Shown: piece after piece, positions 18,340 to 21,300 of the stretch
Numbering within the stretch: the first letter of the stretch is position 1
Layout of the letters: each line of letters begins with the position of its first letter
IMG/VR virus record: IMGVR_UViG_2872192773_000004
Source of the DNA: a virus
Lineage: Duplodnaviria > Heunggongvirae > Uroviricota > Caudoviricetes
Length of the DNA: 55,937 nt
Direction: 5' to 3' (one strand)
Made by a program: the position numbers

Positions 18340-21300
18340 TGACCACTTCAAAGAGAAGAATTTTCGATGAAGCAAACAATCTTCCTCCGAACTAAGCAAC
18401 AACAGCAAGCCGCAATAAATGCCATCCTCTCAACTCCTCTCGATAAAGACAAGCCAGTCACCATCCGCATTACTGACTACAAGCGAAATCTTGACCAGAA
18501 CGCAAAATTTCACGCGATGCTGGCGGATATCGCTCGTCAGGTTCAATGGTGCGGCAAATGGTTAAAACCAGAACAATGGAAGGTTTTGTTGATCAGCGGT
18601 CATGCAGTGGCAACAAAACAGGAAGCTGATGTTTTGCCCGGCCTTGAAGGAGAATGCGTCAACATTCGCGAAAGCAGCGCGCAGATGAGCGTGAAGCGCA
18701 TGGCAAGTCTGATCGAGTACACAACAGCCTGGGCTATTGGTCAGGGTGTCAGATTTACCGACAGGAGGTATGAATGAGGCGACATCGACGAAGTTTCACC
18801 GACATCATCTGCGAAAACTGCAAATACCTTCCAACGAAACGCTCCAGAAATAAACGCAAGCCAATCCCAAAAGAATCTGACGTAAAAACCTTCAACTACA
18901 CGACTCACCTGTGGGATATCCGGTGGCTAAGACATCGTGCGAGGAAATGACTATTTATCCGGTGCGCCGCCAGAATGACGGCGCGGTGTGGTTAAACGAA
19001 GCGGATCTGGAGTTTTTTTCCAGTAGCGCGGGCGAATTTTTTTAGTGTGGCAAATGATGGGCCGCTGATACCTGATGCGAGATTACTTTCCATTCTGGTG
19101 ATCGCGGTCGCTTTTGTTCCCATTCGCTCGGCAACTTCAGCCTGAGTTAAGCCAGCTTCTTTGCGTGCTGCCAGCATTTCATCAAGCAGTGCGAATTCGT
19201 CAGCGATAGCGTCGTATTCTGCTTTAAAAGCCGGGTCTTCCATCCATTTGGCTGCCATTTCGTCGTGTGTCATGGTGGGGAGAGTGCGTTTACCAGTCAT
19301 GCTTAACCTCCTTCATTCTGGTTTCAGCTTTCTTGCGTTCGGCTGGCGGTGTTTTCTGCGCTTTCTTTACAAAACTATGCAGCATGATGATGCGTTTCCC
19401 TGTCAGAGTGCAGTAAAAAACACGCGCGATCCCATCGTTGCCTTTAATTCTGAGTTCGAAAAGCCCGTCACCAAAGGCGCTGGTGTGAGGTTCTCCGAGA
19501 TTGCTGCCGTATACCTTCATGCGTTCAACAAGATGCTGGTATCTGGCACGCATACTCAATGGAAGCTGATCGACCTCCAGTCGGACCTCTTCACTGTAGT
19601 ATTCGATAGTGTAGTTCATACAGCAAAACATAACAAAATCGTTATATCTGCACAATATATTGATTCTGCAATTTCGGGACGTTACACTGTCTCTGCACCT
19701 TATAAAGCGGGGGCCGGGATTGGCGTCCTGAAATTCAATATAGAGCATAACCGCGCTCATGCGGTTTTTTCGTGTCATGAGCATTGCTACGCCCAAATTA
19801 TGGTGGGGCGTGCAGGGACATCGCAAGATGCGCCGGGTTCTATGTTGACCGGTTACGCCAACCCTGTACGTCTCACCACCTCTGTGATTGGCGTCCCATG
19901 TGGTGAGTTCTTTGAATTCAACATAGGGGCTGTCACCATGACTACTCTCCCAACCCTCTCTCAACCTGAAATTGCCATCGTTGATGGTTAGGCTGTTACT
20001 TCATCCCTGGCTGTTGCCAACTTCTTCTCTAAACGTCATGACGATGTTCTGAAAAAGATCCGCATTTTGGATTGTTCTCCAGAGTTTTGTGCCCGCAATT
20101 TTGCGGAGACATCAATTTTGGTACGCCAGCCCAACGGCGGTACTCGCAAACTTCCCTGCTACCAAATTACCCGCGGCGGCTTCGCCTTCCTTGCTATGGG
20201 CTTCACTGGTAAACGTGCCGCCCGGTTCAAAGAGGCATACATCAATGCCTTTAACCAGATGGAGAGGAGCTTATCAGGAGCTGGTGCGGCTGACATGTCA
20301 TCTGTCGCACAAAACGCCAGAGGCGTATACCTGCATTTGCGTGAAATCCATCAAATCTGGACAAGCCAGCTTTACCCAATGCTTAAGGCCGTTGAATCTC
20401 CGCTGGCTGGCAAACTGTACGACCGTGTAGGTGATGCTGTTTTTGGTGCTGCACTTGTTGATTCCAGGCTGAATGGTTCTGACAAGGAGGTGCGCCCATG
20501 ATCCGCCACATCGTTAATTTCCTGTATCACCGATACAACCATTGCCCCCGTGTGGGGCAGTGGTTCACCACCAGCAACGGCTACGTTCTGCGGGTTTGCC
20601 TGGTCAGTACCGAAAGCCAGAAGGTTGTCTGCCAGGTTCAGGGACGTACTCATACCCTGAGTTATCCGCTGGTGGCGTTTCAGCCCGGAAAAATGTTTAA
20701 ACGCCTGGGAGGTGGCTATGCGTCCGTCTGATCTTCTGCTCGATTTTGGACATCCGGTTGCTTATTACCCTGGGCTCGTTAAATACATGGGAAGTCCGCA
20801 CGCTGTTATTTTCTTTGGTCAGATTTTTTACTGGCAGGATAAAGCACATGCAGCGGAAGGCGTACATAAAACGCGTGAAGAGATACAACACGAAACCGGA
20901 CTTACATTTGAACAACAGGCTGTAGCGCGTAAGCATCTTGTGTCCAGAGGCATTTTGGTTGAAACCAACAAGCGTCTTGAGCACAAAATGTTCTACCGTA
21001 TAGATTGTGAGCGCCTTAATGAAATTATCAATGAAAACAATCAGTTTTCCCGAAATGGGGAAACCCGTTTTCGGGAAACTGTAAAACCCAATTTCGCGGA
21101 GGAGGGAAAGCCTTCACCGCGGACACGGGAAACCCCTCGCCGCGGAGAAGGGAAAACCAATTTCGATCTTACAGAGAATACAACAGAGATTACTTCAGAG
21201 AATACTACAGAGAGTAAAAACACTATTGGCGCATCCGCTGACGCGTCTGCACCAGCGCGTTCTTCCCGACAGGAATATTCACCGGAATTTGAACAGGCCT

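Follow-up and report, generated by a model that had tools for sequence, protein, structure and literature searches.

The best-described origins that resemble the element considered here are the in-gene origin of phage lambda and the origins of iteron-containing plasmids. In ori-lambda, the middle of gene O contains iterons spaced 20-24 bp apart and then an AT-rich tract, and two iterons together with this tract suffice for unwinding (PMC7466680); in the lambda genome these iterons start at 39034, 39054, 39078 and 39101. In oriV of plasmid RK2, the DNA-unwinding element (DUE) consists of four tandem 13-mers whose exact sequence is required, and a winged-helix Rep protein binds both the iterons and one strand of the DUE (PMC4081077). 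For Shiga toxin (Stx) phages, the origin studies found deal exclusively with the lambda O/P type (PMC7466680), and neither origins nor iterons are mentioned in the papers on Eru classification. This analysis concerns a 55,937-nucleotide stretch of viral DNA (IMG/VR record IMGVR_UViG_2872192773_000004, termed here the window), which is an E. coli lambdoid (Stx-phage-like) prophage region. Within it, positions 21047-21217 can with good confidence be read as the origin from which the prophage replicates bidirectionally (theta type), situated where the prophage's own initiator gene codes for a linker. Although this kind of element is well known, the origin family associated with this initiator appears to be undescribed: no description of this origin was found in open-access full text (Eru, Stx phages, Aaphi23). 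The initiator gene and its parts are as follows.

20718..21626, plus strand: replication initiator gene, 302 amino acids (from the open reading frame (ORF) list and a match to phrog_270)
20718..21041, plus strand: part coding for the N-terminal domain, a putative winged-helix origin-binding domain
21047..21169, plus strand: iteron array of five in-phase 23-bp units, consensus nnnGGgAAAcCCntntTCGnGaA
21170..21217, plus strand: four tandem 12-mers, a putative DUE, TACAGAGAATAC AACAGAGATTAC TTCAGAGAATAC TACAGAGAGTAA, with unit TACAGAGAWTAC
21222..21626, plus strand: part coding for the C-terminal helical domain, with a YPKRAGGNSK motif and predicted helices at residues 189-255 (predicted local distance difference test, pLDDT, 73-86)

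The five iteron units start at 21047, 21070, 21093, 21116 and 21139, that is, exactly 23 bp apart, and each consists of a half A (TTCSSGRA) followed by a half B (GGGAAAnCC); the array ends in a sixth half A, TTCGATC (21162-21168), with a GATC at 21165. Exact matches to CGCGGA-N3-GGGAAAnCC lie at 21095, 21118 and 21141, again at 23-bp spacing; when up to two mismatches are allowed, this pattern matches five times in the window against 0.44 matches expected, a count reached by 0 of 100 shuffles. A family-derived pattern, TTCSSGRANNNGKRAAANCC, matches at all five unit starts and, overall, seven times in the window against 0.72 expected, and none of 100 shuffles reaches seven. Tandem Repeats Finder (TRF) reports both a period of 23 (2.7 copies, 21095-21155) and a period of 12 (3.7 copies, 21170-21213) at the site. 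The initial annotation, which had described three direct repeats at 23-bp spacing and had proposed a repeat-finder analysis as a check, was thus correct regarding the spacing, but undercounted an array that has five units. The dyad-like element that it placed ahead of the repeats has real arms (21046-21060 and 21064-21078, 15 nt, 87% complementary), but these are simply units 1 and 2 of the array, because the TTCCCGAA and TTCGGGAA halves are mutual reverse complements. Similarly, the A+T-richer stretch that it placed behind the repeats is present (GC content is 0.58-0.63 in the iteron repeats versus 0.317 at 21160-21219), but consists of tandem 12-mers rather than of a generic tract.

These two components have distinct physical properties. 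The iteron array is strongly self-complementary (z = -6.0). The 12-mer block is mostly unstructured as a single strand and harbors the least stable 40-bp duplex of the gene (-44.6 kcal/mol at 21188), which lies about 3.4 standard deviations above the mean for 5 kb of sequence (-55.8 kcal/mol, standard deviation 3.3). A promoter, a terminator and an RNA element were also considered as candidates within 21000-21250 and were rejected, there being no excess over shuffles and no Rfam family match.

Selection upon the repeats was examined by asking how their sequence relates to the reading frame. The iteron units fall in codon phases 1, 0, 2, 1 and 0, which means that translation reads this one DNA motif in each of the three frames. 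Nine enterobacterial relatives with N-domain identities of 76-85% were aligned, and their conservation at the first, second and third codon positions is as follows.

N-domain: 0.91, 0.95 and 0.61
Iteron array: 0.79, 0.82 and 0.78
12-mers: 0.86, 0.83 and 0.85

The signature of selection on protein is thus seen in the N-domain and is absent both from the iteron array and from the 12-mers, where 27 of 48 columns are invariant among the nine relatives. Moreover, synonymous sites of the 12-mers are fixed contrary to host codon bias. In the N-domains of high-GC Burkholderiales, threonine is encoded by ACC 31 times, ACG 20 times, ACA 7 times and ACT 4 times (ACC or ACG in 51 of 62 cases), versus 14 ACA, 19 ACT and no ACC or ACG among the 33 threonine codons of their 12-mers; in AT-rich hosts, the ratio of GAA to GAG for glutamate is 51 to 19 in the N-domain versus 0 to 5 in the 12-mers.

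These patterns bear directly upon the notion that the repeats are merely a low-complexity peptide linker, generated by slippage and devoid of any function as DNA. That the repeat region codes for a disordered linker is consistent with this notion, as are the T-E-I/N-T peptide repeat that the 12-mers encode in a constant frame and the fact that copy number changes by whole 12-mers (from three to five among near-identical E. coli relatives). Yet the 23-bp period is not a multiple of three, third codon positions are conserved as much as first and second positions, synonymous sites defy host bias, and within the Pasteurellaceae a 13-nt version of the repeat (ACACTAGATTACW) preserves the DNA motif but not the peptide. 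An explanation based on peptide repeats is contradicted by the codon-phase and synonymous-site evidence and is highly improbable. The lack of codon periodicity within the linker, together with the occurrence of units in three frames, instead argues that the linker repeats are constrained as DNA and not as protein.

Relatives of this locus were gathered by N-domain protein homology, rather than by DNA repeats, and comprise 27 genomic loci (from Yersinia, Morganella, Proteus, Burkholderia, Paraburkholderia, Trinickia, Haemophilus, Aggregatibacter, Canicola, Nicoletella and Arsenophonus) and 80 IMG/VR loci. (A first N-domain protein search returned mostly truncated or frameshifted fragments, and retrieval of loci at the DNA level was used instead. 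The database homologues P0006, P0008 and P0010, for example, are truncated or switch frame within the 12-mer region, as in ...QRLLQRLHQR..., which suggests either frequent frameshifts or errors in assembly or gene calling at the repeats.) Every retrieved locus that extends through the region has, following the N-domain and at the same position, a three-part layout consisting of (i) 1-10 units, for which 23 bp is the dominant spacing across the family (35 of the spacings), (ii) a closing TTCGATC or TTCGTTAA, and (iii) 2-5 tandem 12- or 13-mers. Among named phages, Aaphi23 (gene o) and BcepIL02 (gp20) share this layout. Conservation of the repeats among relatives had been named beforehand as a check on the proposal that this is an origin; its outcome, together with the apparent constraint on the DNA itself, lends support to that proposal. 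At the junction between the iterons and the 12-mers, the GATC (21165-21168), a Dam/SeqA site, is invariant in the enterobacterial members (L004-L006, L085-L110); the Burkholderiales and Pasteurellaceae have TTCGTTAA in place of the junction TTCGATC.

The two halves of the iteron differ in their conservation: half A (TTCSSGAA) is nearly universal, whereas half B varies with the N-domain clade, as is listed here along with N-domain identity to the window.

Enterobacterales (at least 78% identity): GGGAAACCC
B. semiarida, BcepIL02 and Trinickia (about 62%): GCGGAAAGCGCA
Arsenophonus (57%): GACATTGTCGAG
Paraburkholderia (about 50%): GGGAAAAnCCCAT, also written GGAAAAGTCCA
Pasteurellaceae (48%): CCGAAAGTGACA

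Conversely, phiP27 L17 and SfV orf39, which share the C-domain with the window but have other N-domains (HTH_36), harbor clearly dissimilar repeats in the corresponding position. It is thus the N-terminal domain that the repeats accompany, as is expected of initiator-binding sites. Each of these two genes also has a second short tandem repeat after its own iterons (GAACCAGTCAAW three times in SfV orf39, at L003 2450-2490, and TTYAAAACATGATCCGCAAG twice in phiP27 L17, at L002 2456-2499), so that a two-tier layout of iterons followed by a short tandem repeat seems to be general.

Where homology to other phages begins and ends is likewise informative. DNA homology to phiP27, cdtI, SfV and others begins at nucleotides 511-513 of the gene (21222-21224), right after the 12-mers, and one relative (L070), whose N-domain is 98% identical, diverges directly past its third 12-mer. 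Such mosaic junctions, located directly after the 12-mers, point to the N-domain, the iterons and the 12-mers moving together as one origin module and to the C-domain being a separately exchangeable module. Circular Arsenophonus nasoniae plasmids of 37-41 kb, on which homologues with the same repeats adjoin parMR, provide circumstantial natural support for the interpretation of the site as an origin.

The distribution of the 12-mer extends well beyond these relatives. A scan of IMG/VR for ACAGAGAWTACNWCAGAGAWTAC finds it in at least 120 contigs, and 118 of the 120 matches listed lie inside a long ORF and in the same frame. Among these listed matches (L113-L232), the host ORFs are replication-initiator-like and, by single linkage, 108 of 110 N-domains group into one superfamily; the 12-mer comes after many unrelated iteron arrays (e.g., GGTCAAAATG..., GGGCAAATTGCAC... 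and CAATGGAWAGT...), and the domains that follow it belong to at least four unrelated C-domain families. The possibility that the 12-mer is a universal host-factor site of all in-gene origins was rejected, inasmuch as phiP27 L17 and SfV orf39, with the same C-domain and another N-domain, are without it; the 12-mer therefore travels with the N-domain superfamily.

Such mosaicism also raises the possibility that the 12-mer block, and perhaps the array boundaries too, is kept mainly as a patch of homology at which recombination shuffles N- and C-terminal modules, and that it has no direct role in unwinding. Both the position of the mosaic junctions and, among the listed matches, the joining of one N-domain superfamily across the 12-mers to at least four unrelated C-domain families fit this explanation. 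A junction following the DUE is also expected, however, if an origin and its binding domain travel as one module, and the retention of the 12-mers across both Enterobacterales and Burkholderiales, despite strong biases in codon use and GC content, argues for function over recent exchange, as does the 13-nt variant in Pasteurellaceae. That the block serves mainly for recombination is thus quite unlikely; recombination at the block and its role within an origin are compatible, but as a patch alone it would not suffice to explain conservation against codon bias across orders.

A further proposal is put forward tentatively and with less than even confidence: that a whole superfamily of initiators, in phages and phage-plasmids of Beta- and Gammaproteobacteria, shares the 12-mer (TACAGAGAWTAC; in Pasteurellaceae, the 13-mer ACACTAGATTACW) as an element for unwinding or helicase loading that acts in a sequence-specific manner. 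This element would persist unaltered as iterons and C-domains (of at least four kinds) vary, and would be recognized, probably as single-stranded DNA, either by a conserved surface of the N-domain or by a conserved host factor. If so, it would be the phage counterpart of the 13-mers of oriC and RK2. No description of the 12-mer was found in the searchable literature, where text-string matches correspond to unrelated PCR primers only.

As a separate observation, lambda itself has a sequence, gattattcgtcagagaattc (39149-39178, which is L233 650-679; NC_001416), about 40 nt past iteron 4 and at the end of the AT-rich tract, that resembles the AGATTAC-T-TCAGAGAATAC of the 12-mers and that contains two misc_recomb marks (39157/8 and 39165/6). 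This likeness may be due to chance: it involves a single 11-mer with one or two mismatches in 1.9 kb and by rough estimate is not significant. An IMG/VR scan with the lambda O N-domain, aimed at finding the 12-mer in lambda-type origins, returned only 100%-identical copies of lambda O and was uninformative.

An alternative that accepts the iterons as initiator-binding sites is that they serve regulation (through autorepression, titration or handcuffing, or exclusion of related phages) and that the true origin is elsewhere. Plasmid iterons are, after all, known to act in copy control as well (reviewed in PMC4980987), and cloned lambda ori iterons are reported to produce an inhibition phenotype against rep-lambda phages (PMC3349717). 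On the other hand, the array is always coupled to an adjoining conserved, low-stability 12-mer block, which regulation alone would not need; the replication module contains no other iteron-like array (TRF otherwise reports only an unrelated repeat at 9360-9414); and the arrangement copies that of proven in-gene origins. A purely regulatory role is thus unlikely.

Several points nevertheless weigh against reading 21047-21217 as an origin. Neither a DnaA box (TTATCCACA, with at most one mismatch, on either strand of 20600-21700) nor an integration host factor (IHF) consensus was found nearby, and the searchable literature (open-access full text) yielded no experimental evidence of binding or replication for this initiator family. 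The winged-helix assignment of the N-domain is based on a medium-confidence model and on non-significant Foldseek matches, and the constant frame of the 12-mers in 118 of the 120 matches listed leaves some room for a peptide role. Lastly, comparison with related Stx phages shows a rearrangement upstream of about 19653, where an insertion sequence (IS) and ninB replace cI-cro, so that the origin of this individual prophage may be inactive.

The initiator itself is recognizable as such by family profiles. Among PHROG families, it matches phrog_270 ('replication initiation protein') at 4.9e-65 (residues 3-303) and phrog_9773 at 1.3e-36 (residues 4-204), the 'replication initiation (O-like)' names of PHROG being annotations rather than tested functions; and it shares 96% identity with proteins that many Stx1/Stx2-converting phages (LC5678xx series) carry under the annotation 'replication protein O'. 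Nevertheless, it has no Pfam match, even at E <= 10, and no NCBIfam match, whereas lambda O, used as a positive comparison, matches Pfam PF04492 (Phage_rep_O) at 5.7e-36. Alignment by hhalign of a 25-sequence family alignment against lambda O gives a probability of 0.3%, a sequence search of PDB gives a single chance match (E = 0.9), and sequence homology to the Rep proteins of iteron plasmids (RK2 TrfA, F RepE, R6K pi) was not detected. Judged by these comparisons, the initiator lies outside of the lambda O family and, lacking detectable homology to lambda O, shares only a lambda-like architecture. Hence the term 'O-like' in the initial annotation is apt for the ori-lambda-like arrangement but not for the protein family; its placement of the repeats within the initiator's linker, by contrast, is borne out by structure prediction.

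In the AlphaFold2 model, the N-domain (residues 17-106) has the topology H-H-E-H-H-E-E-H with pLDDT 70-78. A Foldseek search of PDB with this domain gives best matches that are all winged helix-turn-helix (HTH) proteins (ArsR/MarR, DnaD-N, AspA and Rep), with E >= 0.018 and none <= 0.001; a winged-helix fold is plausible but not established. Residues 107-184, between the N-domain and the helical C-domain, are predicted to be disordered (pLDDT about 30), and the part coded by the repeats (nucleotides 330-500 of 909) falls within this stretch, which, being disordered, can tolerate a sequence dictated by the DNA. The C-domain has profile matches to phrog_1701 ('DnaD-like helicase loader', 1.4e-37) and phrog_9327 ('primosomal protein', 4.9e-18), which are annotation labels only, and presumably serves as the contact for the helicase-loading machinery. 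As for the start of the gene, the ORF finder places it at a GTG at 20712, and relatives begin with MRPSD, at the ATG at 20718, preceded by GGAGGTGG.

Directly 3' of the initiator gene are genes for two likely partners.

21637..22515, plus strand: DnaC-like helicase loader gene (IstB_IS21 1.6e-15, Bac_DnaA 5.9e-07, phrog_50 6.4e-90)
22512..23903, plus strand: DnaB-like replicative helicase gene (DnaB_C 3e-72, DnaB N-terminal domain 2.4e-05)

The loader is described as an AAA+, DnaC-like protein (the label of phrog_50 is 'DnaC-like helicase loader') and matches NCBIfam DnaC at 1.4e-38, which is under the curated cutoff; the ORF finder starts it at a GTG at 21628 and relatives at the ATG at 21637. 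Taken together, these features suggest a mechanism for the proposed origin. In a first step, the winged-helix-like N-terminal domain of the initiator would bind to the five 23-bp iterons, through both the family-wide half (TTCSSGAA) and the clade-specific half (GGGAAAnCC). The resulting nucleoprotein complex would then melt the adjoining 12-mers (21170-21217), which constitute the least stable duplex of the gene, and the initiator may hold one 12-mer strand, as plasmid Rep proteins do at the 13-mers of a DUE. Finally, the C-domain would recruit the phage's own DnaC-like loader and DnaB-like helicase. What is observed, then, comprises the anatomy of the site, the constraint on its DNA rather than on protein, the recurrence of the site throughout the family and the way in which its repeats co-vary with the N-domain, whereas we infer binding, melting, helicase loading and origin activity.

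Upstream of the initiator gene are a small conserved ORF and a Rha-family gene (20067-20501), and homology of the window to intact Stx phages starts only near 19653. The replication module is intact in coding terms, but its normal promoter may be absent. The stretches 17138-18342, 18367-18777 and 18992-19650, directly upstream of the replication operon, contain an IS3-family element (orfA/orfB), ninB and, on the minus strand, a pair of genes resembling a Gp49/HigB-like toxin and an HTH_3 antitoxin. On the plus strand, just 5' of the Rha-family gene, are two Rfam matches above the gathering score, isrK (19695-19771, 58.1 bits) and C4 antisense RNA (19796-19883, 74.8 bits), which correspond to a P1/P7-type antisense immunity element preceding an antirepressor-like gene. 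Elsewhere in the window, 10654-11785 is a second and apparently degraded replication module, which explains why the initial annotation spoke of an 'intact replication module': a 214-residue ORF (10654-11298), in which there is an acidic EEEEEEE tract, runs on in a different frame at 11162-11437, as though a replication protein had been frameshifted, and the ORF that follows from 11444 is DnaC-like by eye only. The other 23-nt tandem repeat in the window (CAAGTTTTTTATGTAGAAAAACA, 2.4 copies, 9360-9414, TRF score 66) is situated in an AT-rich spacer beside the 3' end of a minus-strand gene (9459-9866) for a CI-like HTH repressor.

This analysis provides a concrete, testable candidate origin for the replication module of many Stx1/Stx2-converting phages (the 96%-identical LC5678xx series), in which replication drives toxin gene dosage. 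More generally, the bipartite iteron, with its constant and clade-specific halves, offers a natural series for exploring the co-evolution of origin specificity and binding domain, and the invariant 12-mer block is a candidate for a sequence-specific DNA-unwinding element in phages. That the 12-mer is common to initiators with unrelated iterons is the most interesting lead and is worth a specialist's test. In addition, the 12-mer could serve as a DNA signature for finding origins of this superfamily in prophages and in metagenomes, given its occurrence in at least 120 IMG/VR contigs.

Known systems close to the one in the window also include the uncharacterized 'O-like' initiators of Aaphi23, BcepIL02 (gp20)/DC1, Acinetobacter and Pasteurella phages and the LC5678xx Stx phages, whose N-domains are 48-100% identical to that of the window. 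The two that were inspected, Aaphi23 and BcepIL02, have the same layout of iterons and 12- or 13-mers, and the inspected records of these relatives carry no origin or repeat annotation. Between clades, they differ in iteron half B, in unit number (2-10) and in the C-terminal domain. (A pitfall in transferring annotations is that the Stx phage 'P27' of PMC7466680, described as having a lambda-type O and six iterons, and the phiP27 of record AJ298298 (L002), in which the non-lambda initiator L17 precedes DnaC and a helicase, are similarly named but probably distinct phages.)

As in ori-lambda and 933W, the proposed origin lies in the middle of the initiator gene, with five tandem iterons at 23 bp, or about two helical turns, here versus four to six at about 20-24 bp there, and, as in ori-lambda, transcription passes from the iterons straight into an AT-rich, easily melted tract. 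In lambda, the N-domain specifies the origin, the C-domain contacts the helicase delivery system and a helicase-loading gene follows (PMC7466680); the same division of labor is proposed for the window. Unlike lambda, however, the initiator of the window has no detectable homology to lambda O; its iterons are unrelated in sequence and are bipartite, with one constant and one variable half; its AT-rich part is a conserved tandem 12-mer, instead of a purine-rich tract; and its partners are a DnaC-like AAA+ loader and its own DnaB-like helicase, whereas lambda P hijacks the DnaB of the host. Iteron plasmids (RK2 TrfA/oriV, F RepE, R6K pi) differ from the window in that their origins are intergenic and usually contain DnaA boxes, whereas the proposed origin is located in coding sequence and has no DnaA box within 20600-21700. 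What they share with the window is an array of direct repeats adjoining short tandem repeats (the DUE in plasmids and a putative DUE here), an arrangement at which the initiator described here may, by analogy, bind in the manner of a plasmid Rep.

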